This document shows positions 3,773 to 58,521 of a stretch of 64,000 nt of DNA, piece by piece. The notes beneath the pieces are model-generated. The model saw only the letters and a list, made by a program, of their open reading frames with translations. It had not been told where the DNA came from and ran no database searches. Each line of letters starts with the position of its first letter. The first letter of the stretch is position 1. The position numbers were made by a program, and so were the translations under genes. Source of the stretch: a virus (taxonomy: Duplodnaviria > Heunggongvirae > Uroviricota > Caudoviricetes). The DNA lies in IMG/VR virus record IMGVR_UViG_3300012663_000707, positions 6,897 to 70,896 of that record; one strand, 5' to 3'.

Positions 3773-3777
3773 ATGTT

Positions 3778-25701: not shown

Positions 25702-25971
25702 TTATTTATTGATTTGATTATGTATCGGGTTTTTACAATTACCTTTATGAGATCCCCATTGAGTTTGTCCAATTCCACCTACAATATATTCACAACCTTC
25801 AAGAGTATAAACTCTATAATTTTGGTCAAAATACTTTGAACTATTGTCTAGTTCCATTTTATGCGGATTTGATTGAGTCGAAACTTGTACGTTGCCTTCG
25901 CAACTTGTAACCATAAAGGCTACAAGTGCTGCAAAGATCAATAAGAATAGAGTTATATTTTTTCTGTTCAT
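25702..25971 (-). CDS. small secreted lipoprotein (89 aa)
   Basis: Signal peptide with lipobox LVAFMVTSC; cysteine-containing mature part. Confidence 0.5.
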   Translation of the reverse strand: MNRKNITLFLLIFAALVAFMVTSCEGNVQVSTQSNPHKMELDNSSKYFDQNYRVYTLEGCEYIVGGIGQTQWGSHKGNCKNPIHNQINK

Positions 25972-27470
25972 TTAGCAGATTTTAAACGTTCTCTGATTTC
26001 AGTTAATGTTGTTTGGTTTTCAAAGAAACCATTTCTATAAATAGTCTGTAATTCACCTTTTGCCTCATCTTCCCATGAACATTGATCCAGTAAAATTAAT
26101 AATCCAGCGGAGTTATATACACTCAACAATCCAGTTGCTGATTTCTTTGTCCCATCATCTGTAATTGGGTCTTTAAAGATTTGTCTACCTTCGCCATTAA
26201 CATCAACATACGTTGCTTTCATTGCGAAACCAAATGTGTCTCTGGTATTGTATTGGTATGTGAATGAACCTACACCTAAAACGATGTTTGTACTTGCAAA
26301 TCCTTTTGCTTCTAAACGCTTACAGATTTCTTCAGCTCTTTCAATTGTAATTGAGTCTCCGTAGATTGCTCCGATATGAGAGTCAAGAACTTTGTAACCT
26401 TGTTCGTTGATAGTTCCTCCGAAAACATCCCAAAGTAATTCAATAACACCTTTCTTTTCAGGACTATCAGAATTAGTGATTACATTATCATCGCCAAATG
26501 TTGCTTTATTTGATTGAATCCATGATGAATTATCATAACCACAAATAATATCGACCGGATCACCAGAGTCAGGTCTAATAACTACTTTACCATCACGAGC
26601 TAAAATCTCTTCTTTCAAAGTAACTACGTGTTCGGTACAAACTTTCCATAAGTCCCAAGTATCTGATACGATTGAAAGAATTCCTGTTGGATATGTTTCC
26701 ATCAAGTTTCTAAATGTTCCAACCTCATCTTCTTTAGATCCAGCGCACATAACTGAATGTTCAGTTGCATTCACACTTCCACAAACAGTATCTGTTGCAC
26801 CATAAAATTTACGTGCTCCATAAATTGTTGGTAAACTATCTGAACCTAAGAAACTTGTTAAGTGACCAAGACCTGAAGAGATTACTGCCTCCACTGAATC
26901 CATACCTCTCATTGAGAAATCATGTCCTTGCCAATCAATAAACCATCCGCGCTCAGCATCAGTTTTTTCTTGCCATTTGGTCAATACCTTACGGTAAGTA
27001 TGGGCAATAGTTGCAGAAGTCATTGGTTTCCATAACAAGTTTGAAAGGATAGTTTCCAAGTAATTTGTTACCCAATAGAAATCTGGATGTGTATTATAGA
27101 TTGTTAATACAGGAACTTTGATAGGAACTAATGTACCTTCTGGAAGAGCTTTAACCGCGATTGGCAAATAACCTAGATCATGTAGGGCTTCAAAGTGACT
27201 AACATCATAATCAGTTCCAAGGTACATTGATAACTCACGTTTCATTTCTCCACAAACCTCATCTTTTGGTTTGCTAAAGAAATCCTTCTCAAAAGATTCG
27301 TGAATTTGCTTCATTACCATTTGTTGTCCAAACGATACTAATTGGTCGCAACCCTTTGGTGCATACTTGTTACTTCTTGGTGTGAAGTTTGAATAAACCA
27401 ACGTAGTTCCTTTTGGATATTGTTGGTGGTGTCCTGTTTTGTACCCGTCTGTTAAAAATAATGGATTCAT
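25968..27470 (-). CDS. nadV: nicotinamide phosphoribosyltransferase family (NadV/NAMPT-like; could equally be the Namat type)
   Basis: N-terminus MNPLFLTDGYKTGHHQQYP is typical of NAMPT; 500 aa. Confidence 0.85.
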   Translation of the reverse strand: MNPLFLTDGYKTGHHQQYPKGTTLVYSNFTPRSNKYAPKGCDQLVSFGQQMVMKQIHESFEKDFFSKPKDEVCGEMKRELSMYLGTDYDVSHFEALHDLGYLPIAVKALPEGTLVPIKVPVLTIYNTHPDFYWVTNYLETILSNLLWKPMTSATIAHTYRKVLTKWQEKTDAERGWFIDWQGHDFSMRGMDSVEAVISSGLGHLTSFLGSDSLPTIYGARKFYGATDTVCGSVNATEHSVMCAGSKEDEVGTFRNLMETYPTGILSIVSDTWDLWKVCTEHVVTLKEEILARDGKVVIRPDSGDPVDIICGYDNSSWIQSNKATFGDDNVITNSDSPEKKGVIELLWDVFGGTINEQGYKVLDSHIGAIYGDSITIERAEEICKRLEAKGFASTNIVLGVGSFTYQYNTRDTFGFAMKATYVDVNGEGRQIFKDPITDDGTKKSATGLLSVYNSAGLLILLDQCSWEDEAKGELQTIYRNGFFENQTTLTEIRERLKSAK

Positions 27471-28243: not shown

Positions 28244-28450
28244 TTAGTTTTTTCTGATTCCTGTTACCATAACGTATTTAAACGTTCCATCCTTTTTAAA
28301 CATATGCTGAATAAATGTTACATCATACGTTTTAAATCCATTGTCAAATTCCATTGTTATTTGTTCATCGATTAATGGTTTTTCAACTTCACAAATAAAA
28401 TCACTTTCACAGACTCCACCATTCATTAAAACAAATCTACACCTTGTCAT
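28244..28450 (-). CDS. hypothetical small protein (68 aa)
   Basis: ORF in the operon, overlapping the Thg1-like gene end. Confidence 0.35.
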   Translation of the reverse strand: MTRCRFVLMNGGVCESDFICEVEKPLIDEQITMEFDNGFKTYDVTFIQHMFKKDGTFKYVMVTGIRKN

Positions 28451-29378
28451 AATCTATATTTTTAGATGGGTTTAATAGTCCTTTAATAAAAAATCTGTCT
28501 TGTGTAAATGTTGGAGTTTCAATAACTTTCCATTTGTTTCGCTTTACAATTTGATTTGGATCGATCATATGAGTTTTACCATCATTAACAAATTTTGTTG
28601 TAGTTGATCCAATCGTAACAACTTCTACTTTACCAATCACAGCACCTCTTTTCTTACGAAAATCATAATCATTCCAGTTGATTCCCTTTTGAAAAATCAT
28701 CTCTTGCATCTGATCTGTCTTTACACCATTTAATTCTTTTGGACTATAAAGACTTTGTGCAACTGAAGAGATACTGTTTCGTACAGCGTCTTGTTGTCTC
28801 CAAATAAAATAGTTTTCAACTTCATCAATGAATGGAATTTGAAAAGCTCTGGCATCAAATTGAGCCATTTTGAATTTTTGAATTTCATTCTCAGTTAATA
28901 AGTTTTCAACATAGTCTCCCATGATGTCATTACATGCTCTTATTAATCTTAAACGATTAAATTCAGAAGTTGCCATAGAGGCAGCAACACTTACCATTTT
29001 CTGTAAGTTATTGTCAAACCATGCATGAGTTCCTAATTCATCAAAGTCTGTTAGGACTAAACTAATCTCATCTGATTGTACGTAACCAAACTTGGCACCT
29101 TGGATATTTTTACATAGATATGCAGTAGTTGCATTCATGTCTTCAATAAGTCCTTGGTCAAATGGTCGTTCTAATCCTCGAGTGTAAGTGTGGAATGCTT
29201 TTCCGTCAATACGGATAATTGTGAATGTTCTCCTTGGGAGCTTGATTCTAGTTCTATCTTCGTAGAACTCTTTCATACGGTCGCCTAATGCGTCTTTCAT
29301 AATATATGTTATTGTGCAACCTTCGTTAGTTGGATGCTGGTTATGTTCTTTATACTTAGAACATTTGTTTTGTTTCAA
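28437..29378 (-). CDS. Thg1-like protein (tRNA-His guanylyltransferase / 3'-5' nucleotidyltransferase family)
   Basis: IIRIDGKAFHTYTRGLERPFD, GYVQSDEISLVL and the downstream block match Thg1 motifs VVRIDGKKFH..., ..GESDEYSF... Probable true start is the internal MKDALG at about 29300, which clears the adjacent tRNA-like gene. Confidence 0.75.
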   Translation of the reverse strand: MKQNKCSKYKEHNQHPTNEGCTITYIMKDALGDRMKEFYEDRTRIKLPRRTFTIIRIDGKAFHTYTRGLERPFDQGLIEDMNATTAYLCKNIQGAKFGYVQSDEISLVLTDFDELGTHAWFDNNLQKMVSVAASMATSEFNRLRLIRACNDIMGDYVENLLTENEIQKFKMAQFDARAFQIPFIDEVENYFIWRQQDAVRNSISSVAQSLYSPKELNGVKTDQMQEMIFQKGINWNDYDFRKKRGAVIGKVEVVTIGSTTTKFVNDGKTHMIDPNQIVKRNKWKVIETPTFTQDRFFIKGLLNPSKNIDYDKV

Positions 29379-29870: not shown

Positions 29871-30785
29871 TTAAAATACATTAAATTGTGTTACTAAATT
29901 AGGTTTTGTTATACTTGATCCTTTACTATTTGTAGTAGAAGCTTTATCTCCGGATACTTTAGATTCAATATCTTCATAAGAATTAGTGCAGAATATGCCA
30001 TCAAATAATTCATTAAGATCATGGAATCCACTACTAAAAATACCGTGAGTGACCACCAAATAAATTTTAGCAGTTGGGCGTCCTTCTTTAATCGCCTTTG
30101 CCAATTCAACGAATGTTCTACCTCCGTCGCAAATATCATCCACGATTACATATTTAATATCATCATGTTGATTTAATACTGGGATCTCAGTTCTAAGAAT
30201 ATTTCCGGTTCTCATATCCCTTACTTTATTTGCAGTAATGATATTGTTAATGCCGAATTTCTTAGCAACATCAAAGATCTTTTTGTAGGCTCCAGCATCT
30301 GGACTTACTAAGCAGATGCGTGATTGAGCATCGTTTTTGTTGTCTATAGCGGTAAGAGCATATTTGACTAATAGATGATTGTCCACTTTGTCATAGTTGT
30401 TTAGGCATGCCTCTAATACATCTGAGTGCGGATCTAGAGTTAAGACTGTACTTAAGTTTAATGAATTGATGATTGGGCAAATAACTTGCTTTAAGTAGTT
30501 AACTCCGCCATCAACAAATTTACGGTCTGAACGAGCTCCTAAGAAATAAGGAACATAAAGTGCAATCTCTTTGTTTGGTACGATGTTACGTATCGCTTGC
30601 ACTGCGCAGATAAGTAATTCTACGTCTCCGAATGAATTCAAACGAGTGCTTAATTTAACTGCATCGTCATTATTCATCAAAATACTCCAACTTGTAAGAT
30701 CTACAGTTTGTTGTCCGTCAGGAAACTTACTGATCTTATACTTGATTTGAGATTTTTCTTGATCGATTAAATTTAATGTTATCAT
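29871..30785 (-). CDS. prs: ribose-phosphate pyrophosphokinase family (Prs; possibly ADP-ribose pyrophosphokinase Adps-type)
   Basis: PRPP-binding loop YVIVDDICDGGRTF; 304 aa; a two-domain PRTase-like layout. Confidence 0.8.
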   Translation of the reverse strand: MITLNLIDQEKSQIKYKISKFPDGQQTVDLTSWSILMNNDDAVKLSTRLNSFGDVELLICAVQAIRNIVPNKEIALYVPYFLGARSDRKFVDGGVNYLKQVICPIINSLNLSTVLTLDPHSDVLEACLNNYDKVDNHLLVKYALTAIDNKNDAQSRICLVSPDAGAYKKIFDVAKKFGINNIITANKVRDMRTGNILRTEIPVLNQHDDIKYVIVDDICDGGRTFVELAKAIKEGRPTAKIYLVVTHGIFSSGFHDLNELFDGIFCTNSYEDIESKVSGDKASTTNSKGSSITKPNLVTQFNVF

Positions 30786-32923: not shown

Positions 32924-33535
32924 TTATCTAAAGTCTGCGTTAACTTTAAACTTTCTATTCTTAATGATGTCGTTCATCTTGTTAGAAAGATATGCTAGGA
33001 TCTCCATCTGAGCATTCTTTGCTGCTTCATCAATTGAATCTTCAGCCATATCTTCTTTAAAGTCTTCCCAGTTGTTATCTGTATCATTGTACCATTGTTC
33101 GAAAGCATCTACAAGTTCGTCAGCAGGCTCCATTAAACTTGGTAGTTCAATAAATTCTTCATTGACTTTTTTTGTTGTTTGTGTTTTGCTATTTATAAAA
33201 GATTCGAAATTCATAGTCTTTTTTATTTTTTTCATTCTTTTTTTGTATTCTTCTTCAGCATCACCTTTACCTGCTGGTTTATCACCAGATCCAGGTTCTG
33301 TTTGTGTTGGAAATGCTGGTGCACCCATACCATGCATACTTGCTGGTGTTATATTCTCTTTTACCTCAGGTAAATTATCATGCTTTGTGCTAGCAAAGTC
33401 TTTTAATTGCTGTAAAGTCATTGAGTCGGCTAAGTCTTTAACCTCTTGGCTTGCCTCTTTAGGATCTAGATCACCTTTCTTATAGGCATAAGCCATACCC
33501 ATTAATCTTTGTTGTACTTTACTAGTTGCTGGCAT
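32924..33535 (-). CDS. hypothetical protein with conserved MPATSKVQQRLMGMAYAYKKG N-terminus and an internal CTS-like MNFESFINS
   Basis: 203 aa. The N-terminal 20 residues look like a conserved phage-family signature; the second half begins with the F-E-S-F-I-N motif. Confidence 0.5.
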   Translation of the reverse strand: MPATSKVQQRLMGMAYAYKKGDLDPKEASQEVKDLADSMTLQQLKDFASTKHDNLPEVKENITPASMHGMGAPAFPTQTEPGSGDKPAGKGDAEEEYKKRMKKIKKTMNFESFINSKTQTTKKVNEEFIELPSLMEPADELVDAFEQWYNDTDNNWEDFKEDMAEDSIDEAAKNAQMEILAYLSNKMNDIIKNRKFKVNADFR

Positions 33536-33543: not shown

Positions 33544-34080
33544 TTATTTTATATCGATTTGCATGTATTCAACATCTCTGATTTCAACATTGTTATATCC
33601 TACTTGAGAATCAAAAGTACCGTAGATGTCTTCACCCATTTGAATTCCAGTATTCATCATACCACCTAATTTTCTTGAGAATTTAGAACCATCAACATCA
33701 TCCATGAAACCAACGTTAATTACAAAGTCACCTGGTATTGCAATAAACAATGCATCGCTTCCTCTGTTTAGATTGTTAATCTCATCAGCTTTCCATTTTT
33801 TATGGAGGCCGCTAACATGCACATATACTACTTGATCCATGTCTTTAACTACCTTTTTAACTTCATCCAAGATAATTTTTACACCATCTTTATGGAAATC
33901 TTCCCAAGCAGCGTTAACTTCATCAAGCGTAGCGTTAACGTTTTCTTCGAATTTAACTCTCTCGATTTGTTTTTTAAAGGCCTGCATTAATTTACCAATA
34001 AGTCCTTTAGATGTATAAATGCCTGTCATTCGGTATACTTTCTCGTTGACAAACTGTTCAAATAATTGTACGTGTTTCAT
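33544..34080 (-). CDS. hypothetical protein with CTS-like N-terminus (MKHVQLFEQFVNEK)
   Basis: 178 aa; shares the N-terminal motif. Confidence 0.5.
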   Translation of the reverse strand: MKHVQLFEQFVNEKVYRMTGIYTSKGLIGKLMQAFKKQIERVKFEENVNATLDEVNAAWEDFHKDGVKIILDEVKKVVKDMDQVVYVHVSGLHKKWKADEINNLNRGSDALFIAIPGDFVINVGFMDDVDGSKFSRKLGGMMNTGIQMGEDIYGTFDSQVGYNNVEIRDVEYMQIDIK

Positions 34081-34099
34081 TTTAATATCTTATTTTAAA

Positions 34100-35746
34100 T
34101 TACCAAGCGTAATCCATGTTTTCAATTTTTCTAACTCTATCTTGTATAGTTTTAGCATAGTTTGCAGCTTCGCGTTTGTAATATTGATCGCTAGTACCAT
34201 ATCTCTTTTCTGATTCAATTGAACTTGAAAGTGCACTAACATATCTAGAATAATCGTCTAGTAAGTTTCTCATAATGTTTGCAGCATCTGATAATTTAAC
34301 ATCACGATCTTTCTTATCTTTACCGATTAAGATTTCACCGTATTGTGATTTTACATTTTTAGCGACTGCATCTTTAATATGTGATGATAATGTATCAATA
34401 CAATCCAATACAATTTTATCCAAAGGCAATTCCATTGCTTTTTGAGATAAGATCTTGTTGTATCTTGCGATGTTTGCATCTTTAAACTCTTTATCATTCA
34501 TGAATACAGTAGCACCTTTTTTCGCTTCTGCTCTTGATCCTCTAACAGATTCAGCTGAGTATCTTTGTTTAAGAATATCGATGTCTAAGATGATTGCTCT
34601 ATCTGCAACTTCTGAGATTCTCTTTGCATTATAAAGTCCAGTTGCATCATAACCTCTGTAAACTTTACCAATACCGATACTGTCATTACCTGGCTTACCG
34701 TCAATCTTTTTGAATGTACGAGAATTTAAACCACGAACATATGCAGTTCCGTAGAATGTATTTTCAGCATCAGTTACAGCTAATAAATAACCACCACCTG
34801 GTACCATCTTGTTAGTTCTATAAGAATCTGAAGGTGCATATGGATTTTCCTTTTCTACATCCGAGATATAGAATACAAATTTGCTTCCACCTTTAGCTTT
34901 GTAAGCTGCATCTGGAGAAACCTCAATTAGATCGAAATCTTCAATTTGGTCTAATTGCAATCTAGTCGAGTTATAAAAAGCCTTTGATAATTCTTTTGCT
35001 TGATTACCTGCAGTTGCAAATAGGTTTGAAAGTCTTGTAGATTTAAAAGCCTCATTTACTGGTTTAGTTGCAGAGATAAACTCACTGAATGACTCATATA
35101 AGAAAGTATTCTTAGATTCAAAAGTACCGCTAGTTGCTAAATCACATAAGATCTCAGCAATCTTTTTAGCTTGAGTACCTTTATGTCCATAAGATTCTAC
35201 TGTATCTTGCGCTTCTTCTGGCAACATATCTTTTAATTCCCATGGATCGTGTTCTGCCAATAGATCTTGCAAGATTGCTTTAGCTTCTTTTTCTTCTTTA
35301 GACTCGTTCATTTTTTCTTCTTCTTTAATTATTGTTTTATCTTTTACTGTAACTGGAAAAGTTTTACCATTGAATTCAAATTCTGTTAAACCTTCTTGTT
35401 TTGCTTTTTTTGCAGCTCCAGTAAATTTATTACCTTCATGAACAATAATAGAATCTAGGATTTTCTTACCGAATGATGAAAGTGAAATACCGCCATCTTC
35501 TGAGACAGTAAAATATTTCTTATTTGTAGTAAACCATCTCTTTGCATTTGTAGAATGCTCAGAAACAATTTTCATTAATTCTTCTTGATTTAATGTACCA
35601 TCAGCAATTGCCTCTAATACTTTATTTCTGATCTTAGCATGTAGACCTGCAGTCATTGCTGGATGTTGATCAGTATATTGTCTCTTAAGAGTAACTGTTT
35701 TGGTTTCATTAATAAAACCGTCAAATGAAGTTGAAATAGTTTCCAT
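34100..35746 (-). CDS. hypothetical protein (548 aa) with CTS-like N-terminus (METISTSFDGFINETK)
   Basis: Long ORF preceded by TATAAATA 10 nt upstream of the ATG. Confidence 0.55.
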   Translation of the reverse strand: METISTSFDGFINETKTVTLKRQYTDQHPAMTAGLHAKIRNKVLEAIADGTLNQEELMKIVSEHSTNAKRWFTTNKKYFTVSEDGGISLSSFGKKILDSIIVHEGNKFTGAAKKAKQEGLTEFEFNGKTFPVTVKDKTIIKEEEKMNESKEEKEAKAILQDLLAEHDPWELKDMLPEEAQDTVESYGHKGTQAKKIAEILCDLATSGTFESKNTFLYESFSEFISATKPVNEAFKSTRLSNLFATAGNQAKELSKAFYNSTRLQLDQIEDFDLIEVSPDAAYKAKGGSKFVFYISDVEKENPYAPSDSYRTNKMVPGGGYLLAVTDAENTFYGTAYVRGLNSRTFKKIDGKPGNDSIGIGKVYRGYDATGLYNAKRISEVADRAIILDIDILKQRYSAESVRGSRAEAKKGATVFMNDKEFKDANIARYNKILSQKAMELPLDKIVLDCIDTLSSHIKDAVAKNVKSQYGEILIGKDKKDRDVKLSDAANIMRNLLDDYSRYVSALSSSIESEKRYGTSDQYYKREAANYAKTIQDRVRKIENMDYAW

Positions 35747-35755
35747 TTTACTTTT

Positions 35756-35763
35756 TATTTATA
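35756..35763 (-). promoter_or_regulatory. TATAAATA late-promoter-like motif upstream of 34100..35746
   Basis: Plus tatttata at 35756-35763; minus strand reads TATATAAATAAAAAGTAAAATG. Confidence 0.3.
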
Positions 35764-37597
35764 TATTTTTAAGAAATTCATTGAATGTTAGGAAGTTACT
35801 CTCGTTAGTAGCCATTGACTGCTGAAGTTTATCCTTAAGCTCAGTATACATACCATGAATTGCTCTAGGTGTTAATTTTTTAAATGTCTTTTCGTCATCT
35901 TCTAACATTGCATTTCTAACTTGAGTAGCTGAAACATCATTGTCACCTCTTGTAATTTCAAATAAACCAAAGTCTGGTCTTACATTTAAATCATTTCTAT
36001 ACTCTTCTTTGTCTACTTGATATGAATAAGTCTTCATTCTATCAGTACCGGTACCCCATAAAACTGGTTCGTACTTGGGTCTAAGTTCATTAAACATCAA
36101 ATCAATACCAGCGCTTGGCAAGATAAATACATCTTGAATCGGGTAAGTACTCTTTAACGCTTCAAGCATTCTTACTTGTGTATCTTCATCATAAGGTCTA
36201 GAGAAAGCATCTTCTTTCTTTTTAGTCTTAGATTTAATTAAGAAGATTACAACTGGATAGCCATTTTGTTTCTGCATGTTCTCAATAACTTTGGCATGTC
36301 CTAATGTAAATGGTTGGAATCTACCAACAAACATATTTACCGGCATTTTACCATGGTCAGTTGTATTAACTTTTAATGCTTCCAAGATTGGACTAGTTTG
36401 CACTGATAAGTTTTGGTGTTTTAAATAAGATTGGAAATTCAATACGTCTCCTTCTTTTATTGTACCCATAACGATATTTTCTATTTCGTTCACAATATCA
36501 TTAATTTGAGCCATTAGATCAGCATTGATAATCGTGGTTTCTTTAGTTCTAATTTTTCTAAAAGAACCTAAGATAATTTTAAAAAGTTCAGCAACAACTT
36601 TATTTTGTACTAATGCAACCGTCTTTTCATTTTGAATATACTTAGTGTTCAATTCAAAACCTGGAATTGTTGCAAAGTCTGCTGAGTCGAAAGAAGCACC
36701 AATATACTTGGTAGCATTATCTTCCATATATGCATTAAAGATGATCGACATTAATTCTAAATATCTTTCATCTGTTTTTTCTGCTTTTAGTTCTACCTTA
36801 CTTAGATCATATTGAGCCATATACTCTACTAGATCTAAGATTGAGATTTGATACATGTCCGATGGAGCTCTATCCACTGGTGCTTTTTTATCAAATCTTT
36901 CTAGTTTAAAACTTTTAACGGCTTTACCATCAAAGAAATTTAAGATTAGGCAGTCGATTGGTTTATCAAGATCTCTATTTAACGCAGTGTTGTTTAGACC
37001 TTTATTAAAAATATTGTAAACATATCTTGTAAATGATCGATCATTAAAGTAAGATGTAAAATCGCCATCAGACATACTTAAGAGATCCGTTAACGCATCC
37101 TTTTGGTCCGACTGTAAGATTCCATTGTAAATAACTTGAGGTCGCTGTACTTCAAGATAATCAGCCCATTCGTTTAAAACTTTAGGATCTCTAATTACCT
37201 TTTTAACTTGAGTTAGATCTACAGGATTCAATACTTGAATATGAGTTAAAACCAAATGATTCTTTGGCAACATATCATATTCGATGTCTACTGTCTTTGG
37301 ATCTATCATATAGTCAAATCCAAATTTCCAGTCTACTGGCATCTTTTCTCTAACGTCGGCAGATAATGTGCCGAAATAATTAATAGCATTCTCGTAATAT
37401 TTTACGATCGTGCGATCAACTTTATCCATTTCACTTTTTTGACCACTTTTAAAATAGTCAAAGCCTTCCGATGTTTTTTTAACATGGAAAGAAGATGCTT
37501 GTATCTTTTCAGTAACAACGCATGGAACCGTTAATAAGTCCGTGAACTCATTAGTATTAGCCGATTCAAAATATGTTTTTAAGTTTTGTAGAGCCAT
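35759..37597 (-). CDS. large protein with C-terminal NMNAT-type (cytidylyltransferase-like) nucleotidyltransferase domain
   Basis: Class-I nucleotidyltransferase motifs GRFQPFTLGH (HxGH) and VSATQVRN (ISSTxxR) in the last 200 aa. The roughly 400-aa N-terminal part is unassigned. The C-terminus ends ...NFLTFNEFLKNI. Confidence 0.55.
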   Translation of the reverse strand: MALQNLKTYFESANTNEFTDLLTVPCVVTEKIQASSFHVKKTSEGFDYFKSGQKSEMDKVDRTIVKYYENAINYFGTLSADVREKMPVDWKFGFDYMIDPKTVDIEYDMLPKNHLVLTHIQVLNPVDLTQVKKVIRDPKVLNEWADYLEVQRPQVIYNGILQSDQKDALTDLLSMSDGDFTSYFNDRSFTRYVYNIFNKGLNNTALNRDLDKPIDCLILNFFDGKAVKSFKLERFDKKAPVDRAPSDMYQISILDLVEYMAQYDLSKVELKAEKTDERYLELMSIIFNAYMEDNATKYIGASFDSADFATIPGFELNTKYIQNEKTVALVQNKVVAELFKIILGSFRKIRTKETTIINADLMAQINDIVNEIENIVMGTIKEGDVLNFQSYLKHQNLSVQTSPILEALKVNTTDHGKMPVNMFVGRFQPFTLGHAKVIENMQKQNGYPVVIFLIKSKTKKKEDAFSRPYDEDTQVRMLEALKSTYPIQDVFILPSAGIDLMFNELRPKYEPVLWGTGTDRMKTYSYQVDKEEYRNDLNVRPDFGLFEITRGDNDVSATQVRNAMLEDDEKTFKKLTPRAIHGMYTELKDKLQQSMATNESNFLTFNEFLKNI

Positions 37598-37601
37598 TCT
37601 T

Positions 37602-39002
37602 TTATCTACCGTATTTAATGATACCCATTAGTTGGTTAATTGCAGCAAAGGTACCTGTTAATTTGTAAGTATGTCCTTTGTATCTGAATACTAGGCCTTC
37701 TGTCGGAATGATGGATTGTACACCACCGATTCTATCCAATCTAGCAAGTTCAGATTCTACTTTATCTATCTGTTTTTGGTCACCGCCTTTTCTAACGTTT
37801 TCAGCTGCATTTTTAATCTCGTTATGCAACCTTTGCATTTCTTTATCTGGTGACAAAGCTAAAAAGTTAGAAGCATTTTTAAGGATGATCGAACCTAGTT
37901 CTAAGAAAATATCTTCAAAAGGTCTAATGTTTTCTTTATACTTCTTTTTTGCATCTTCTTTATCAAATTGCTTGATTGCAGCTTCTTGTTCTTTGCTTAA
38001 AGACTTTCCTAAATCTCTTAGATTCAAAGTCTTCTTGTCATCGTAAGCCCATCTTAACATTAAACCTTCTTTAATGTCTTGTGGCATTTCTCCAAAGATA
38101 GCATCGATTTGTTCTCTCCACCACATTTCGTGGTATTTAGAAACTGGATCTGAATCCATTAAACCATATTGGTCTCTTAATGCTTCGATCTTTTTGATAA
38201 ATTTATCTTTGTTAGTATCAAAGTCGATGTCTTTTCTTAGTTGAATGATTTGTGGGGGAATTATTGTAAATTTAGAACCTACGTTTGCATTCAATTCTTT
38301 TAATACTTTAGCGATCTCTGACGCAGCTTTAGGCTGTTCATTAATGATATTACCTTCGCCATCAGTTTCTTTAATACCATGGAACTGGATCACATCTACA
38401 TCATAATGAATTACATTAGGATTAAGTGAATAGATCAACTCCATGTTCATAAAGTTCTTTCCATTTTGGAAAGTGCTATCTTGTACACCTTTTGGAAGTC
38501 TAATTAATAGACTTGCCAAATCCGCTGCTGCGAATTGAAAAGTATCTTGTACTAATTTGCTAGGGTGTCCTTCAAACTTAGATTGGAAATCAGCAAGAGA
38601 CATCGGTAATTTCATATCACCTTTATTTCTTGCAAATTTAACTTCACCATCTTGGATAGTAGCAAATACATTTTGACCATCTGTTTTTTCAGTCGGTTGC
38701 TCTTCAAAATTAAGTTCACCTTGTAAACCTGATTCTGCCATAGCTTTTAAATCGCCGAAAGTCAAATCCTTATTATCAAATGGGTGTGACATGTGTCCTG
38801 CTGCACCACCTTCTAATACAAGTTGGTTAAACATTTTAGCTTCATATGTTTGTACAAAGCCTTCTGTTAAAAATTGATCTAAGTTAAGTAATTTCATTTC
38901 TTTATAATCTATTAAAGACCCAGTTGCCCAGGTCTTTTGTTTTGTTTGTTTTATTAAGCTTCTTGTGAAATCATTGCTTGAATAACATTGCTTGAGATCC
39001 AA
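37602..39002 (-). CDS. hypothetical protein with KxDG nucleotidyltransferase-like motif (ligase-like candidate), CTS-like MKLLNLDQFLTEG near the N-terminus
   Basis: EKTDGQNVFATIQDGEVKF resembles ligase/capping motif I (KxDG); other ligase motifs were not confidently located. Confidence 0.3.
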   Translation of the reverse strand: MDLKQCYSSNDFTRSLIKQTKQKTWATGSLIDYKEMKLLNLDQFLTEGFVQTYEAKMFNQLVLEGGAAGHMSHPFDNKDLTFGDLKAMAESGLQGELNFEEQPTEKTDGQNVFATIQDGEVKFARNKGDMKLPMSLADFQSKFEGHPSKLVQDTFQFAAADLASLLIRLPKGVQDSTFQNGKNFMNMELIYSLNPNVIHYDVDVIQFHGIKETDGEGNIINEQPKAASEIAKVLKELNANVGSKFTIIPPQIIQLRKDIDFDTNKDKFIKKIEALRDQYGLMDSDPVSKYHEMWWREQIDAIFGEMPQDIKEGLMLRWAYDDKKTLNLRDLGKSLSKEQEAAIKQFDKEDAKKKYKENIRPFEDIFLELGSIILKNASNFLALSPDKEMQRLHNEIKNAAENVRKGGDQKQIDKVESELARLDRIGGVQSIIPTEGLVFRYKGHTYKLTGTFAAINQLMGIIKYGR

Positions 39003-40315
39003 CCTGCTTTTTTAAAGAATTCTTGTGCTAATTTCTTAATATTTTGAATTTGTGCACCTTTGATGCGATTTTCAGCACCGTCAGCTTCTTGATTCCAGTA
39101 AACTACTGCATCTTCGAATGTATCTTCAAAATCTTTAGATTTCACTTCGTGTTCTTTTTGACCTTGACCAGAAGTATCTGTATTGTAATCCGACCAGTAT
39201 TTAACATCAATTGATTCGTTTGAAACTGATTCTCCTAAAGAACTTGTTAACATACCAACACATTTACCATAGTCACCATCACATTTACCAAGGATACCTG
39301 TAACTACATCATTTGCTTTAGCCTCATCAAAATCAGCACCAAATGCTTTTTTCAAAATAGTCATTGCATATTCTTTAAACTCATCATCAGATTTAATCTC
39401 TGCTGCTTCATTTAATGTAGACTCTTTAATGTATTCTGCTAATTCAGGCTCATCCCAACCTGCAGTAGGATCTGATAATACTGTTGTTAGATCTTTTTTA
39501 CTACCGGTTAATTTTACTTCCCATCCTGCAGGATTTTCACCTAGTACTTTCATCTTAACGTTATTCTTCTTTAATAACTTTTTAAGGTTTTCATCTTCTG
39601 GTTGTAATGCATCAAGGTTAATTGTAGCTTCATGTAGTTTGCTCTCGTTAAACAGTCCATTGAAATCATCAATCAACGCTTGGCCAGTTCCAGCCATACC
39701 AATTGAATCTAAATATAAACCGGTACCTTCAACGATTGTAATACCACCCCACTCGCCAGCACTTGAAATTCTACTATAAACGCTATCTAAATAAGCATTA
39801 ATAGTTTGTGGTCCAACTGCAACTGCAAAGTTTCCTAATTCCGGAGAATTAATCGTAATTGTTTTAAATTTAGAAGGTGCTCTGAAGAGTTTAAGCAATT
39901 GGTAACCTTCTTTAGCAAAGTTTGCATCTTCCATAGCTAACCAAAAAAGTTGTCTTAGAGCCATAATATGTACTTCTTTATCTTTTGTAAGCAATGTTGC
40001 TTCAGTAAAGATTTTATTATATACATTGAATACTTTGTTAGCGCCTCTCTTAGAAGAAACTTTAACAGCTTCAGTAACTGAATCGCCATCGATCACCATT
40101 GATTCGCTGATCCCTTGACCTCTTAATTTTTCAAAGAATTCTGATCTTTGTTCTTCTGCTAATTCTTTAACTGTTGCAACACCATACTCTGATAATAGAG
40201 CTTTGAATGTGTTTGCTGAATTAGTTCTTTTTGCTTCTTGTTCTTCTCTGATAGCCGCTTGTGTTTGTTCAGCTTTCTGACTTGAGAATTGTTCAAATGA
40301 TACTAGTTTATTCAT
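38954..40315 (-). CDS. hypothetical protein (453 aa) with CTS-like N-terminus (MNKLVSFEQFSS)
   Basis: Long ORF; shares the N-terminal motif. Confidence 0.5.
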   Translation of the reverse strand: MNKLVSFEQFSSQKAEQTQAAIREEQEAKRTNSANTFKALLSEYGVATVKELAEEQRSEFFEKLRGQGISESMVIDGDSVTEAVKVSSKRGANKVFNVYNKIFTEATLLTKDKEVHIMALRQLFWLAMEDANFAKEGYQLLKLFRAPSKFKTITINSPELGNFAVAVGPQTINAYLDSVYSRISSAGEWGGITIVEGTGLYLDSIGMAGTGQALIDDFNGLFNESKLHEATINLDALQPEDENLKKLLKKNNVKMKVLGENPAGWEVKLTGSKKDLTTVLSDPTAGWDEPELAEYIKESTLNEAAEIKSDDEFKEYAMTILKKAFGADFDEAKANDVVTGILGKCDGDYGKCVGMLTSSLGESVSNESIDVKYWSDYNTDTSGQGQKEHEVKSKDFEDTFEDAVVYWNQEADGAENRIKGAQIQNIKKLAQEFFKKAGWISSNVIQAMISQEA

Positions 40316-40348: not shown

Positions 40349-41857
40349 TTATATATCCCCCTCAAAAGATACATTTTTTATTTCGTATTGAAACTTCTGT
40401 TCTTTATAGATTTTTTGTCTAGACTTAGCATGTCGCATTAGATAGTTATCCCAATCAGGTGATGATATGTCATCTACAAAATCAATGATATTAACAATGT
40501 CTTTTGATTGATGTTGTCTTAGACCTCTACCAATCGATTGACGTATGATTACTTCTGATTTGAAGGACTCCGTAAAGAAAATGTTGTGTATCTTTTTAAT
40601 TGAGATACCAGTTGAGAATGTACCGTAAGATGCTACGATTACGATTTCTTCACCGGCTTCCATTTTCTTTTTAAACTCTTCTCGTATATCTTTGTCGATA
40701 CCTCCATCAACATAATAGACCGTCTTGTCACTCTCTTGGCGAAGCTTTTCATATATCTTTTTACCGTGTTCAATTCTATGGAATAATACCAAACTATTCC
40801 TGCGTACTCTGGAAATAATGCTGCAAATAAAGTTAAGGCGACCTGGGGAATTGATGATATAATTTTGTTCAAATTTAAAAACATCTTTACTTTCATATTT
40901 ATTAAATGCCATTTCTCTAAAAGCATTCTTAGCAGATTCAGGTGCATAGTTCATCTGAATCACTTTAACTTGACATTTAGCAATGTGGCCTTCGTTCTGT
41001 AAGAAATTTGCACTTACATCTGCGATTACTGGACCTGTATATGACATTAGTGTCAATCGATCCAAAGTACCAGGTTTAGGTATTGTACCTGATAAACCAA
41101 ATCTATAATTTGCTTTAGTACACTTCTGTAAAATCGTCTTGATTGAAGCCGATTTTGCTTTATGTGTTTCATCAATTATAACAGCATCAAACTGTTCAAA
41201 ATATTCTTTCTCTTTTTTAACTAGAGATTGATAAGTTCCAATTACAACATTTCTACCTGGTCTAATCTTCTGTCCACTATATATTTGCTGGATTTTGATT
41301 GGCACTCTATTTTGCCAATTGTACTCGGTAAAATCTTCAGTAGCTTGTACTACCAAAGATACGTTTGGAACTATAAATAGAATCTTTTCAGCCTTTTGTT
41401 TTTCTAGCATATAAGCTACAGTCATAAAGGAGATCATTGTCTTTCCAGCAGAGGTTGCTAGTTCAGCAAGACATTTTCTAAATTTAAGGATATTAAACGC
41501 AGCTTCAATTTGATAATCGTGTGGTGTTAATTTATAACCATCAAAGAAATCAATTGCCCATTTTTCAAATGGTTCAGTTTGGATATTTTTATCGAATAGA
41601 TTAGTAATACCGTTGATCTTTAATTCATAACGGTATTCCTTACATATATTCATGACTTCACGCCAAAGACCTGCTGGAATCCATTTATCTTCTTTAATAT
41701 AAGAGATATAACCGTCCCAGAGTCCTTTCTTTACTAAAGGGTGAAATCTCCAGTTTTCTACCCTTCGGTTTAACGAAATATTCAATTGCTCGATTTCCAT
41801 CTCGGAAGCCGAATCAATTCGCAGCAACTGCATATTTTCTGTTAAACTTATTTCCAT
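40349..41857 (-). CDS. SF2 DNA/RNA helicase (UvsW-like candidate)
   Basis: Motif I AELATSAGKT, motif II IIDETHKA (DExH), and motif VI QSIGRGLRQ. Confidence 0.8.
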   Translation of the reverse strand: MEISLTENMQLLRIDSASEMEIEQLNISLNRRVENWRFHPLVKKGLWDGYISYIKEDKWIPAGLWREVMNICKEYRYELKINGITNLFDKNIQTEPFEKWAIDFFDGYKLTPHDYQIEAAFNILKFRKCLAELATSAGKTMISFMTVAYMLEKQKAEKILFIVPNVSLVVQATEDFTEYNWQNRVPIKIQQIYSGQKIRPGRNVVIGTYQSLVKKEKEYFEQFDAVIIDETHKAKSASIKTILQKCTKANYRFGLSGTIPKPGTLDRLTLMSYTGPVIADVSANFLQNEGHIAKCQVKVIQMNYAPESAKNAFREMAFNKYESKDVFKFEQNYIINSPGRLNFICSIISRVRRNSLVLFHRIEHGKKIYEKLRQESDKTVYYVDGGIDKDIREEFKKKMEAGEEIVIVASYGTFSTGISIKKIHNIFFTESFKSEVIIRQSIGRGLRQHQSKDIVNIIDFVDDISSPDWDNYLMRHAKSRQKIYKEQKFQYEIKNVSFEGDI

Positions 41858-44609: not shown

Positions 44610-44792
44610 TTAAATAGTTTCAGGCGAATGAAGGGTTAATACAGAATTTTCATCTTGTCTCCAGAGGTCTCCTTCAAGCTTAAGTAGCCCTGACTTATGG
44701 AGGAAGTCTTCACGCTCAACATTTGTGATGCGTTCTTCTCTAACCATATTAACTAGGATCTCGTTGAGTCTAATGTAGTGTATTGTTACCAT
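44610..44792 (-). CDS. hypothetical small protein (60 aa from ATG; the track's longer version uses a GTG start)
   Basis: Isolated small ORF flanked by two hairpins (ggaacaata...tattgttcc and tagtttc-gca-gaaacta). Confidence 0.3.
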   Translation of the reverse strand: MVTIHYIRLNEILVNMVREERITNVEREDFLHKSGLLKLEGDLWRQDENSVLTLHSPETI

Positions 44793-44960
44793 TCTAAATT
44801 TGCCCACAACATATAGTCATTGTGTACATATTATATATCTGATCTCTGCTTAGTTTCGCAGAAACTAAATAAAATTATTTTGAATCTTTTTGTAAATAGT
44901 TTGGAACAATAGCCTGGGCCTTGCATATAAGTATTGTTCCTTTTGGAAAGGTAAGGTTAG

Positions 44961-45608: not shown

Positions 45609-45986
45609 TTATACACGTTTACCGATAGAAGCACCTAAAGCGGTACCAACTAATCTTGATGTTAATAGATCAAATAAGATACCTCTTTCAACACCTAATA
45701 CTCTACAGATCATAGAACCTATAGATTTACCTAATGCAAATCCGGTTAAACCACCAATAATAGAACCTAATAGTCCTTCATTAGTAATCTCTTCATTAAG
45801 ACGATCTAAATCAAATGTACCATCTTCATTCTGATACTCTTTAATAAAGGCATCGATCGCTTCATTTACTTTAGCTTCTAATTCCGGAGTCCATTCTGAT
45901 TGTAATCCTTCTTTAAGCATTTGTAGATCTTCTTCTGTATATTGATTCTCCGTTAGGTAATCGTTAAAAGTCTTAATGTTTTCCAT
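45609..45986 (-). CDS. glycine-zipper membrane protein (holin or membrane-active candidate) with CTS-like N-terminus (KTFNDYLTE)
   Basis: C-terminal GSIIGGLTGFALGKSIGS and VGTALGASIG GxxxG repeats. Confidence 0.45.
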   Translation of the reverse strand: MENIKTFNDYLTENQYTEEDLQMLKEGLQSEWTPELEAKVNEAIDAFIKEYQNEDGTFDLDRLNEEITNEGLLGSIIGGLTGFALGKSIGSMICRVLGVERGILFDLLTSRLVGTALGASIGKRV

Positions 45987-45996
45987 ATTTTATATA

Positions 45997-46545
45997 TCAA
46001 TCTATTTCAATTCTTAAATCAAGCTTGTTATAAACAAAGTTCAATTCGAATGTATTAAATGCGGCAACGTTTTCTGAAAAACTTAGATTTAAATCATTCA
46101 TAGATTTTAAAATAGGTTTTTGAAATTCCATATATGCAACACTAGCTCCTTCAGCATCCAAGATTCTTAATGTTAAATCTTGACAATAAGGATCCTTAGT
46201 ACTTCTTGCATAATACCACAATAACGTATCCATCATGATCCAGTAATTAATGTAACCATCTAATAGTTGCATGGTCACTGTAAATTCCCTATTAATCGTA
46301 TTTTGGATTGGCACTGCTCCTCTATGGTATCTTAACGTACCGTCATTATCTTGTAAAGTTACCGGATCAAAAGAAACTCCAGGTATATTAATGCCTTGAA
46401 CTGAATAATTTACAATATCAATAGGTTCTGCTAAAAGAGCACCAGGAATTTTATCCATGTACTTTCTGTACTTGGCAGCAACTACTTCCGGAATAAACTT
46501 TCTCGGAAATTTAAAGTCGAATGAATTATTTCTACTACTTAACAT
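45997..46545 (-). CDS. hypothetical virion protein (182 aa)
   Basis: Within the contiguous structural operon. Confidence 0.45.
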   Translation of the reverse strand: MLSSRNNSFDFKFPRKFIPEVVAAKYRKYMDKIPGALLAEPIDIVNYSVQGINIPGVSFDPVTLQDNDGTLRYHRGAVPIQNTINREFTVTMQLLDGYINYWIMMDTLLWYYARSTKDPYCQDLTLRILDAEGASVAYMEFQKPILKSMNDLNLSFSENVAAFNTFELNFVYNKLDLRIEID

Positions 46546-46547
46546 GC

Positions 46548-48608
46548 TTAGATATTAAAATTACCTTTAGTAACCATAGTTTCTGTGGTTCCGTTATTAA
46601 TTGAAATGTAGAATTTATTATTGGCCATCCCTCTAATTGCAGCAGCATTAGCATCATTAATAAAGAATAAAACTTCACCAGTTGCCATGTTGATACTTTG
46701 ATCAGTTACATGGTTAAATCTAAGTTTGTTTTGTCCATCAATAAATGAAAGTACTACATTCTCGACGTTATCGAAAGTTAGGTACTCTAAATCGTTACCT
46801 CTTAATTTAGCAATCTTAAATTTGTAATAACTTGCAAATGGAGATACGTAAATATTTAGATCGTTCTCGTTAACATAAGGCATTGTATCTACTTCAATTG
46901 CTTCAACTTGTCCATTAACTCCAGTCGAAGCTAAAAATTCTACGTTTGATGCAGAAGCTACTACATTATATCTTTCTACAAATGCAGGTACTTTTTTAAT
47001 GCTTCTAGGCATTGTACTACTAATCAAGTCTCTAACCGCTCTATTCGCACTTACGTTGGGCAGGATGTTATAAATCTCAGTAGTTGCGTTACCATTCAAT
47101 TTAACTTGCAATAGTCTCTTACCGTACTTACCGGCTTGTGGTATTGTCAATGACGCTTTCTTTACAATCTGCGTATTATCAGTTTGGTTATAAATTCTCA
47201 TCGTAACATCGATTGAGAAGTTAACCGCAATATTTGAATTAATAACAACCGGTCTAAAAAGAATCGGTGTACTAAAGTCTTCTGTTTGTGAGAATATCGT
47301 TGAGAATGTTTTAACTTCACTAGCTCCAATTTGTTCAAACTGTTCTACTTCATATAGAACTACAATATCATCGCTTGTTAAATTAATTCTTTCTAAGATG
47401 TAAGCCTCAAATTTTTCAATTGCCCCGAATCTTTCACCGTAGATTTTAAAGTAATCTCCATCTGGTGCATCTTCTACAACTACTGTAAAACTCTGGAACT
47501 CATCTTCTCTAGATACAGTTAAACTATTTTCTAGACCAGTAAAAATATAATCGAATCCGTTGATAGTTTTCAACTGATCAATCATCTTTAGATTGATCTT
47601 ATAATTTGTATCTACTTTAAGATCCGAAGAGTTTGCGGTACCATCACCGTAGAATAAATCCAAGAATTCAGGATTTTGTTGTACTACTGTCGGTAATTTA
47701 ACCTCAATAAATTTAGCATATAAAGTTTCTCCTAAGATAAAAGGCTTAGGGTTTGCAATTTCATAATTTGAAGTATTAAGATATACAAGTTGCGTTAAGT
47801 TATTTGATACTCCTGAATTTCTTTCAGCAAGTACTTCAAACATAAAACCTTGTAAACCTCTTGAAGCAAAAGAATATCCGCTTCTTAAATGCAATCTAAC
47901 AGTATCGTATTTGATATAGTTAATATTTGCAGTATTATAACTTTGGCTTTGGATTAAATCAGTCTCTTTAGAACCTAACCAAGCAGTATTGTTATTAATA
48001 TAATTGAACTTCTCATAAGTACCCGTAGAATCATAACCGATTAAAGCATACTTAGTTTTATCTTCAGCGGTTTGAACTGCATGGTATCTACCTAAAGTTT
48101 GGTTTATATCGTTACCTGTATTTTCACTTGGATTTGCAAAAAATGGATTTGCTTTTGCAGCAACTGTAATCTTACCACCAATTAAACCAGGGTATTCATA
48201 AGAAACCGTACCGTTTTGAGTTGGTACATAAGTGCCTATTCCAGACGATACTGAAAATGACCAGATACCTAAATTACCTGTAATTTGAAAATCAGCAGGA
48301 TTAGAAAGAGCACTAAGATCAAACTTATAAGTCTTTCCGTTTTGTAGTAATAAAGTTCTTGCTGCAAAACTTTCAATTGCGATATAACCACTGGTTGATG
48401 TCACATCAAAGTTAACAACATCAGATCCAAGTTCATGAATCAAGTGTCTCTTCGAGAAAGAATCTCCAAGTACTGTATCGACAAACATAACTTCACTACC
48501 ATTGTCATCAACTTCAATATGATATGCAGTTGGGTTTGATTGATCATGATAGATGAATTCTAGTAGAATGTCTTGGTCTATTCTATAATATTTAGATGAT
48601 TGTGCCAT
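46548..48608 (-). CDS. virion structural protein (686 aa)
   Basis: Large ORF within the structural operon. Confidence 0.5.
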   Translation of the reverse strand: MAQSSKYYRIDQDILLEFIYHDQSNPTAYHIEVDDNGSEVMFVDTVLGDSFSKRHLIHELGSDVVNFDVTSTSGYIAIESFAARTLLLQNGKTYKFDLSALSNPADFQITGNLGIWSFSVSSGIGTYVPTQNGTVSYEYPGLIGGKITVAAKANPFFANPSENTGNDINQTLGRYHAVQTAEDKTKYALIGYDSTGTYEKFNYINNNTAWLGSKETDLIQSQSYNTANINYIKYDTVRLHLRSGYSFASRGLQGFMFEVLAERNSGVSNNLTQLVYLNTSNYEIANPKPFILGETLYAKFIEVKLPTVVQQNPEFLDLFYGDGTANSSDLKVDTNYKINLKMIDQLKTINGFDYIFTGLENSLTVSREDEFQSFTVVVEDAPDGDYFKIYGERFGAIEKFEAYILERINLTSDDIVVLYEVEQFEQIGASEVKTFSTIFSQTEDFSTPILFRPVVINSNIAVNFSIDVTMRIYNQTDNTQIVKKASLTIPQAGKYGKRLLQVKLNGNATTEIYNILPNVSANRAVRDLISSTMPRSIKKVPAFVERYNVVASASNVEFLASTGVNGQVEAIEVDTMPYVNENDLNIYVSPFASYYKFKIAKLRGNDLEYLTFDNVENVVLSFIDGQNKLRFNHVTDQSINMATGEVLFFINDANAAAIRGMANNKFYISINNGTTETMVTKGNFNI

Positions 48609-48610: not shown

Positions 48611-49435
48611 TTAGTTAAATCTTAGCCATTTTGGTGACCAGATAGCATTAATGCCAATGGTCGGACCGAACGATACAATATTTCCAGGAGTTAAGCATAC
48701 GCCATAACCAACACCAAGTCCAATCGACCATCCAGCTTTCTTTTCGAGCTTCTGGTTCAGTTTATTATTTATCAGGTTTATATTTTCAATGTCATTGAAT
48801 TTTAAACCTGGGTAATCTGTTGTTATTTTTAATTGTTGCACTCCAGTTGATTCATCAATTGCAGCGACCAATTTTATATTTTGATCCAATACAAAGATTG
48901 GATTTTGTGCGATAATTTCATTTGTAAGATAGTTTCTCTTAACAATCACAGATCCCTTTAAAGATCTAGAATTCCCATTACCAAAATCATTTGTTTTATC
49001 AAATTCTAATCTGGTCGTTAAACTATCTACTTTAACTTGTCTTAAGTTTGCAATAATACTATCTTTGATTCCAATGTCAAACATCAATAAAGAGTTAACA
49101 TTCTTTAAATCCTTATTTAAGTTTAACGCAGTTCTATACTTTTCAGTTAGTTTCTTCTGTTCATCTCTTAAGTTTGCAACATCAAATTCATAACTTTTAA
49201 TTTCAGCAACAAGACCACCTGTTTTATTCTTATAATAACGAACGCTATCATTTGCAGCATTATTGTTATTAATTTCACGTTGTGTTGATTCGGTTGCAGC
49301 CTTTACATCTTGTTTTAAGTCTGATATTTGATTACATTGCTTTAGGAACAATAAAATAAAAAGCATGCCCAAAACAAAGGATATAAGCCCTCTATTTTTA
49401 TCTATTATGTCTAACCATTTTTTCATTGTTTCCAT
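48611..49435 (-). CDS. membrane-anchored coiled-coil protein (274 aa)
   Basis: N-terminal TM helix (LISFVLGMLFILLFL) and a coiled-coil region. Confidence 0.45.
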   Translation of the reverse strand: METMKKWLDIIDKNRGLISFVLGMLFILLFLKQCNQISDLKQDVKAATESTQREINNNNAANDSVRYYKNKTGGLVAEIKSYEFDVANLRDEQKKLTEKYRTALNLNKDLKNVNSLLMFDIGIKDSIIANLRQVKVDSLTTRLEFDKTNDFGNGNSRSLKGSVIVKRNYLTNEIIAQNPIFVLDQNIKLVAAIDESTGVQQLKITTDYPGLKFNDIENINLINNKLNQKLEKKAGWSIGLGVGYGVCLTPGNIVSFGPTIGINAIWSPKWLRFN

Positions 49436-58432: not shown

Positions 58433-58521
58433 TTATGTATGAATCTTTCTTTATAGTATACGCATCTATTTAGAGCGTTCCTCTATTATATATTCAACAA
58501 AATTATGGCTATATCAGCTTA

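Follow-up and report, generated by a model that had tools for sequence, protein, structure and literature searches.

The window analyzed here is a stretch of 64,000 nucleotides (nt) from a virus of the Caudoviricetes (IMG/VR record IMGVR_UViG_3300012663_000707, positions 6,897 to 70,896 of that record). All long open reading frames (ORFs) in the window are on the minus strand, and the G+C content is 0.30-0.37. The element under study is a short peptide, the leader, found at the N-terminus of several otherwise unrelated proteins. A first reading of the letters (the original prediction) had noted this motif, had compared it with the capsid targeting sequence (CTS) of phage T4, and had proposed that its bearers are packaged in the head and enter the host with the DNA. 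It gave a tally of nine proteins, seven of them with an N-terminal motif; its own list contains eight, six of them N-terminal. The eight are:

5108-6451, minus strand: candidate cargo, AAA-type ATPase-like, 447 residues with a Walker-A P-loop domain (phrog_1250); leader MKILDFESFINE at 6416-6451 (strict match)
32924-33535, minus strand: candidate cargo with a DUF3008 domain, a Lys-rich linker, an internal leader copy (MNFESFINS, residue 109, at 33185-33211) and a C-terminal domain
33544-34080, minus strand: candidate cargo of 178 residues, no known family; leader MKHVQLFEQFVNE at 34042-34080 (strict match)
34100-35746, minus strand: candidate cargo polyprotein of 548 residues; leader METISTSFDGFINE at 35705-35746 (strict match); internal junction FLYESFSEFISATKPVNE/A (residues 215-232; a slash marks a putative cut) at 35051-35104, just ahead of the conserved C-terminal domain
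35759-37597, minus strand: candidate cargo with an uncharacterised N-terminal domain and a C-terminal cytidylyltransferase/NMNAT-like domain; leader-like C-terminal tail FLTFNEFLKNI, directly before the stop and without Glu, at 35762-35794
37602-38897, minus strand: candidate cargo, ligase-like protein of 431 residues, possibly a nucleotidyltransferase of the ATP-dependent RNA/DNA ligase superfamily; leader MKLLNLDQFLTE at 38862-38897 (strict match)
38954-40315, minus strand: candidate cargo of 453 residues; degenerate leader MNKLVSFEQFSSQ at 40277-40315, in which Gln replaces Glu
45609-45986, minus strand: candidate cargo of 125 residues with a glycine-zipper-like hydrophobic C-terminus; leader MENIKTFNDYLTE at 45948-45986 (strict match)

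The start codons first listed for two of these genes were revised. The ATPase-like gene truly begins with the ATG at 6451 rather than the GTG at 6487, and the ligase-like gene with the ATG at 38897 rather than the TTG at 39002; with the latter correction, the overlap with the upstream gene vanishes. The degenerate, internal, and C-terminal copies in 38954-40315, 32924-33535, and 35759-37597 sit where the original prediction had placed them. The internal copy FLYESFSEFISATKPVNE in 34100-35746 is the second leader copy of that protein and was absent from its list.

We ran the strict pattern [FL][DEN].[FY][IVL][NT]E on the products of 59 minus-strand ORFs (20,340 residues). Five matches were found, compared to 0.09 expected from composition, and all five end 12-14 residues past the likely start codon. 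The probability of five or more matches within the first 15 positions is ~6e-15, a value that is inflated, the pattern having been set post hoc. In a pattern-free test, N-terminal 22-mers were compared pairwise by their best ungapped 8-mer score (BLOSUM62); 18 pairs scored 23 or more, whereas internal segments gave 5-7 such pairs and shuffles 7.5. The highest score reached 35, versus 25-26 in the controls, and the top pairs were the motif bearers. The enrichment over shuffled sequences that had been proposed as a check is thus present, and the motif is not scattered at random over the proteome. The motif is real and occurs far beyond chance. The codons differ from copy to copy, so the conservation acts at the level of the peptide. 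All pairwise BLASTP comparisons among the tagged proteins of the window gave E-values above 0.05; the bearers are mutually unrelated. A six-frame scan of the window detected no additional N-terminal copies, and the leader is missing from all window proteins with an assigned role in replication or nucleotide metabolism.

The leader is retained in homologues of the tagged proteins. The 17 orthologues of the ATPase-like protein (52-82% identical) all start with a version of the motif (MKLLDFNDFVNE, MRYLDFNQFVNES, MGLRYLKDYDSFINES, MKHVKLFEEFINES). The ~180-residue N-terminal extension of this protein, which includes the leader, is specific to the clade; in T4-like and KVP40-like phages, homology is confined to residues 184-443. 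A homologue of this P-loop domain is conserved in more than 1,300 records of T4-like, KVP40-like, and Bacteroides phages, where its label is either hypothetical protein or, erroneously, thioredoxin.

For the ligase-like protein there are 1,987 homologues; the best 120 of them are 68-94% identical. Among 21 aligned homologues the core is nearly invariant, while the N-terminus keeps only [FYL]-x-x-F-[ILV]-x-E, and the linker that follows varies in length and sequence. The leader and linker were modelled as disordered. In the orthologues of 34100-35746, 33544-34080 (MKHIKLFEQFINEK, MKYIKLYEDFVTEK), 45609-45986, and 38954-40315 (MQKLKSFDQFATE, MAKLKSFEQYVAE), the leader is likewise kept and the flanks or linker vary. 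Some orthologues of 45609-45986 begin with MKTFLKYLEE or MKTFIEYLEE, which have the length and pattern of T4 MKTYQEFIAE. Copies away from the N-terminus are conserved too: the orthologue of 32924-33535 on contig L002 has KMLKTFEQFVNES at the equivalent junction, and about 20 orthologues of 35759-37597 have the C-terminal end MTFEQFI[NK]... Searches with 33544-34080, 34100-35746, and 38954-40315 gave no assignable function. Structure prediction, which had been suggested as a way to assign functions to the cargo, did not achieve this for the C-terminal domain of 34100-35746 (pLDDT 83, no informative fold match).

To count the leader across the clade, IMG/VR was scanned with a DNA pattern encoding K-L-F-E-x-F-x-N-E, which returned at least 120 stretches. 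Among the matches listed, Met is located exactly four residues upstream in 125 of 153; the full leader therefore is MK[HYK][IV]KLFExF[ILV]NE. The clade consensus MKHIKLFEQFINE is M-K-[HY]-[IV]-K-L-[FY]-E-x-F-[ILV]-N-E; individual leaders are 12-14 residues long. We pooled at least 259 unique tagged proteins, whose parts after the Glu fall into at least 119 BLAST clusters (median ~133 residues). Glu is residue 13 in 75% of the 259 proteins, and conservation collapses right past it; among loci that were not chosen by the pattern, 50 of 78 cases have the Glu at this position. In the pooled loci, many tagged genes form tandem arrays of two or three. A shared N-terminus followed by unrelated mature parts looks like a common, removable leader. 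The strings KLFEQF, KLFEEF, MKHIKLFE, and MKHVKLFE were found in no paper of the searchable literature library.

The head genes lie beyond the window start. An exact-protein look-up with the gp4-like head completion protein led to contig L027, which is 95-98% identical to window positions 1-5370 and extends 6.8 kb beyond the window start. The gene used is:

551-1024, minus strand: gp4-like head completion protein

The gene order in L027 is gp2, a T4-type portal (Portal_T4, PF07230, phrog_213), a 120-residue acidic protein, a 669-residue protease fusion, and a Gp23-family major capsid protein (MCP). The first ~200 residues of the fusion are a Peptidase_S77 domain (PF03420, phrog_207). In an alignment to the T4 gp21 structure 5JBL, the motifs GELDHP and SSRA are kept and correspond to T4 His85 and Ser140. 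The gp21-like prohead protease gene that the original prediction had said should be looked for is thus present in this near-identical contig, with its catalytic His and Ser, ~3 kb beyond the window start. The C-terminal ~470 residues of the fusion are acidic and rich in repeats; judged by acidity and repeats, with no gp22 homology shown, this part looks like a fused scaffold. It contains five tandem Y-x-E-[HY]-[LVI]-A-E repeats (L027 7538-9547, residues 280-375: YSEHVAEKA, YAEHLAEKL, YSEHLAEAV, FANYLAEAH, YAEYIAESI), which resemble YQEFIAE of the T4 CTS and are candidate self-cleavage sites.

The MCP has at least 587 relatives in IMG/VR, and the head module is syntenic in the best 80 loci of the 587. 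At least ten contigs are common to the leader matches and the MCP matches. Over 243 aligned residues, the MCP shares 29% identity with gp23. The acidic protein of ~115 residues between portal and protease starts with the leader in ~60 loci, which are most of the distinct ones listed (MKIIKTFEDFISE, MKYLRLFEQFIKE, MKYVKLFEQFIKE, MKTIKTFEQFISE, MKYLKLFEQFVNE); it occupies the place of the T4 core proteins gp67 and gp68. The L027 version has Ser where the leader has Glu. Downstream of the MCP, a protein with a leader-like start is encoded (MKLKSKLKLYEEFVNE), and some loci contain additional small tagged ORFs between protease and MCP.

The MCP itself begins with M-x(1-2)-[LKR]-[IL]-N-E-[AS]-E-I in 80 of 80 MCPs and in phage LR756500.1 (L230 20026-21678). 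This resembles T4 FLTE/AEIGG and was considered as proof of the protease specificity; it was set aside, as it aligns with the start of the delta domain (T4 KAELLNKWKPLLE) and not with Glu65, where T4 gp23 is matured. A conserved K-L-Y-E-D-A further into the MCP is another possible maturation site.

Processing-like sites are also found inside the tagged proteins. The motif [ILVM]-N-E is 4.6 times more common in the tagged proteins of the window (11 in 2,385 residues) than in the others (18 in 17,955 residues; P = 4e-5), and it is present in the protease-scaffold fusion, the MCP, and neighbouring head proteins. The homologues of 34100-35746 invariably have F-[LV]-[YH]-E-S-F-x-x-F-...-[LV]-N-E/A ahead of the conserved C-terminal domain, a duplicated copy of this domain carries its own ...VNE/AF, and inserted domains are flanked by xNE/[AS]. 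In some of these homologues the N-terminal leader is internal, since a further domain is fused ahead of it. The family resembles a polyprotein with protease sites at the module boundaries. A mobile domain of ~70 residues recurs in 38954-40315 (residues ~225-300) and in the candidate cargo proteins P0139 (residues ~20-95) and P0207 (residues ~200-275). Its consensus, LKKLLKK..V...GP.GWPEV.LTG..KDL..VL....GWD...LAEYI.ES, is always followed by [LV]-N-E/[AS]; in 38954-40315 the domain is followed by TLNE/A.

A promoter-like motif, GATATATAA (core ATATATAA), is common to tagged genes and head genes. Throughout the clade it precedes four head genes at a fixed spacing. In the head-gene loci L149-L228, it precedes the portal gene in 72 of 73 loci (~30 nt), the MCP gene in 58 of 70 (~90-107 nt), the core protein gene in 43 of 65 (~12 nt), and the protease gene in 26 of 75. 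The window contains nine copies on the gene strand and two on the opposite strand; eight of the nine are located no further than 64 nt ahead of an ORF start (P ~1e-9). The sites discussed here, and the sigma factor gene of the window, are:

6477-6485, minus strand: GATATATAA, its ATATATAA core starting 33 nt before the ATG at 6451
35759-35766, minus strand: ATATATAA, 20 nt before the ATG of 34100-35746
40349-40357, minus strand: GATATATAA, its ATATATAA core starting 41 nt before the ATG of 38954-40315
45990-45998, minus strand: GATATATAA, its ATATATAA core starting 11 nt before the ATG of 45609-45986
2695-2702, 44831-44839, 51525-51533 and 58486-58493: further sites of GATATATAA or its core
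1027-1398, minus strand: gp55-like late sigma factor (phrog_234, E 2.6e-9)

A copy precedes four of the six genes with an N-terminal leader (5108-6451, 34100-35746, 38954-40315, and 45609-45986), compared to 4 of 53 other genes (P = 0.002). The copies at 40356 and 35766 jointly head the six-gene island 40315-32924. Two copies precede tail-fibre genes. No copy in the window lies directly before a replication gene; the one at 44838 precedes only a 65-residue ORF (44610-44807), ~310 nt upstream of the gene for the single-stranded DNA-binding protein (SSB). The tagged genes of the window lie among replication genes, yet these four share the motif of the head genes. Clade-wide, the motif precedes 29% of the tagged and 16% of the untagged genes (P = 2.6e-7). 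Since a gp55-like sigma factor is present, GATATATAA plausibly is the late promoter of the clade; a factor of this kind would read T4-type late promoters. The canonical T4 late promoter TATAAATA was tried as a candidate and is not enriched in the window (12 copies versus 10.3 expected); GATATATAA is the relevant motif instead.

The CTS of the T4 internal proteins IPI, IPII, and IPIII and of Alt was reportedly described by Mullaney and Black in 1996. It has since been reviewed (PMC9026906, PMC3012670). Suppressor and truncation experiments showed that targeting is governed by its residues 4 and 7 and processing by residues 8 and 10, and that Asp at position 10 blocks cleavage while targeting is kept (PMC9026906). 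T4-related proteases all cut after Glu, within a three-residue motif (PMC5694885). IPII and IPIII begin with MKTYQEFIAE and IPI with MKTFKEFTS. The logo of the leader has F or Y at -6, F at -3, I, V, or L at -2, and E at 0, which is the spacing of MKTYQEFIAE, with a three-residue offset from the Met in most copies. The parallel to the T4 CTS, cleavage signature included, that had been drawn from the window extends to the clade: the four most conserved positions of the leader are T4 positions 4, 7, 8, and 10.

We consider it probable that the leader works like the T4 CTS, loading its bearers into the head and being cut off after the Glu. This reading is favoured because the phage has the protease and a T4-type head, a core protein is tagged, the conserved positions match those of T4, and tagged genes have the promoter-like motif of the head genes. 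All sequence-level predictions of this reading that could be checked were borne out. Under this reading, the pair of aromatic residues, three positions apart, would attach a protein to the scaffolding core while the prohead assembles. The gp21-type Peptidase_S77 would then cut after the Glu of [ILV]-x-E, which would remove the leader and split multi-domain cargo. The mature proteins would remain inside the DNA-filled head and pass into the host together with the DNA. Copies that lack the Glu (the C-terminal tail of 35759-37597, the Gln of 38954-40315, and the Ser of the L027 core protein) are predicted to be targeted and left uncut, because the T4 Asp-10 mutant behaves in this way.

Beyond the positions in the peptide, the parallel to T4 extends to the arrangement of the genes. 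In both systems a short N-terminal peptide of the form M-K-...-aromatic-x-x-aromatic-aliphatic-x-Glu, here a putative propeptide, heads otherwise unrelated proteins; the genome has genes for a gp21-family protease, a T4-type portal, and a gp23-type MCP; and the tagged genes lie dispersed away from the structural module, the small ones in variable tandem arrays. In contrast to the T4 CTS, the consensus MKHIKLFEQFINE has 13 residues rather than 10 and Asn rather than Ala before the Glu. The leader is also found on a head-module core protein, at internal domain junctions, and as a C-terminal tail that is predicted to be non-cleavable; and it is carried by large conserved enzymes besides small variable proteins. 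Unlike T4, the clade is uncultured, only distantly T4-like, and known here from sequence alone. To our knowledge, which here includes the account in PMC9026906, CTS-like leaders have otherwise been described only for T-even-type phages.

The ejection or inner-body proteins of the giant phages phiKZ, 201phi2-1, and SPN3US provide a second comparison. These phages carry many head-internal proteins, enzymes among them, which a related protease trims after Glu, as is predicted here, and their gp21-like proteases also use extra sites within the propeptides (PMC5694885, PMC7411985). However, their sites are S/A/G-x-E motifs, mostly in propeptides of more than 100 residues, and they have no common short leader, whereas a single leader is shared by more than 100 families here. 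Encapsulin cargo-loading peptides and the P22 scaffold tag are short terminal peptides that, from either terminus, direct diverse cargo into a shell of the HK97 fold. They bind the shell or scaffold and are not removed by proteolysis, and their cargo is not delivered to another cell. The leader resembles them in being a short peptide at either terminus of diverse proteins; the proposed removal and the proposed delivery to another cell set it apart.

Under an alternative explanation, the leader would be only a propeptide for processing or activation, or a mark of prohead core proteins that are degraded and expelled, and no effector would be delivered. The tagged protein in the gp67/gp68 position, the five Y-x-E-[HY]-[LVI]-A-E repeats in the scaffold part of the protease, and the [ILV]-N-E sites at domain junctions would all fit such a role. 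However, T4 gp21 acts inside the prohead, and the CTS-bearing proteins are retained there and later ejected (PMC9026906, PMC3012670); moreover, folded enzymes such as the ligase-like protein, the P-loop ATPase, and the NMNAT fusion are unlikely scaffold filler. We regard this explanation as unlikely.

We give still less credence to the leader being a docking or localisation signal for a partner outside the capsid (a chaperone, a replication or compartment factor, a degradation tag, or a membrane or secretion system). Such a partner could account for the location of the tagged genes among those for replication and nucleotide metabolism and for the one bearer with a hydrophobic, glycine-zipper-like tail. 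It is at odds with the leader on a protein encoded between portal and protease in ~60 loci, with the promoter-like motif of the head genes upstream of tagged genes, and with the absence of the leader from the replication and nucleotide-metabolism proteins of the window. The invariant Glu after an aliphatic residue fits the specificity of S77 peptidases instead.

Paralogous ancestry, or a nucleotide or translation-initiation constraint in an AT-rich genome (33-35% G+C, with Lys, Ile, Phe, Asn, and Glu codons AT-rich and MK starts common), is essentially excluded as the source of the similarity: the codons differ, the mature parts form at least 119 unrelated clusters, spacing and Glu are fixed, shuffled and internal controls carry no signal, and the internal and C-terminal copies are conserved in orthologues.

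Several observations weigh against a CTS-like function of the leader. The clade-wide enrichment of the promoter-like motif (29% versus 16%) is modest, and the role of GATATATAA as a promoter is deduced from sequence rather than mapped. The specificity of the protease is not established by the [IL]-N-E of the MCP, which aligns with the T4 delta-domain start. Several bearers, the ligase-like protein among them, are large, highly conserved enzymes, unlike the small, fast-evolving internal proteins of T4. The leader has too few residues for common descent with the T4 CTS to be demonstrated, and the similarity is at the level of the pattern only. The closest GenBank genome, LR756500.1, has an MCP with only 52% identity, and in Tenacibaculum phage PTm1 (MCP 32%) the leader is absent from the 45 kb examined, head module included.

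LR756500.1, a 462-kb metagenomic phage, is the nearest record by protein comparison (UvsX 62% and MCP 52% identical); it is followed by the Prevotella Lak phages (38%) and then the Tenacibaculum jumbo phages (32%). A megablast search of the region against GenBank detected no phage that is close at the DNA level. A tblastn search with the leader, made to find a cultured relative, gave only a weak match, in LR756500.1. In this phage no tagged ORFs are located in the 40 kb around uvsX; tagged ORFs are found elsewhere in its genome (MKYIKEYSEFVNE, MKYIQTYDDFLNE).

More tentatively, it is possible that an uncultured T4-related clade, with at least 587 MCP relatives, contigs of up to ~480 kb, and nearest relatives that infect Bacteroidota, pre-loads well over 100 unrelated protein families into its heads through a single capsid address. 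The cargo would comprise conserved enzymes (RNA-ligase-like, P-loop ATPase, NMNAT fusion) and small variable arrays, the virion would bring a toolkit for RNA repair, NAD restoration, and anti-defence, and the leader would also work at C-termini and internal junctions. Should the leader really address proteins to the capsid, the candidate injected proteome of a large group of uncultured phages could be listed from sequence alone. The T4 protein IPI*, once injected, counters host restriction; hundreds of candidates would be a good hunting ground for new counter-defence functions. RNA-repair and NAD-metabolism enzymes may arrive pre-made. The targeting principle of T4 would extend far past the T-even phages, with C-terminal tags, internal junctions, and a tagged core protein, and the leader would serve as a transferable tag with which foreign proteins could be packaged into phages of the clade, whose host probably belongs to the Bacteroidota.

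The remaining genes of the window include the following.

11364-12479, minus strand: UvsX, a T4-type recombination gene
40349-41857, minus strand: UvsW, a T4-type gene
within the window, minus strand: DnaB-like helicase, primase, and gp32-like SSB, T4-type replication genes
46-64 kb of the window: tail-fibre-like genes

Three of the tail-fibre-like genes are very large: 49444-51468 (674 residues), which has collagen-like G-x-x repeats, 51470-58432 (2,320 residues), and 58522-62190 (1,222 residues). The PHROG search gave no assignment for their neighbours 46548-48608 and 48611-49435, and no tRNA genes were found within the window. The family-B DNA polymerase is encoded by two genes, 19342-20745 and 13043-14251, ~5 kb apart; between them are ribonucleotide reductase-like genes (recognised by reading the sequences), a dehydrogenase (PF02826), and others.

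A Thg1-like tRNA-His guanylyltransferase is encoded at 28437-29378 (PF04446, E 2e-28); together with the ligase-like protein 37602-38897, it hints at a capability for RNA repair. The genes 25968-27470, 29871-30785, and 35759-37597 form an NAD-salvage-like set of NAMPT (PF04095 and PF18127), a PRPP-synthetase-like protein, and the NMNAT/cytidylyltransferase-like protein. This set resembles the NAD-reconstitution pathways with which phages counter NAD-depleting defences.

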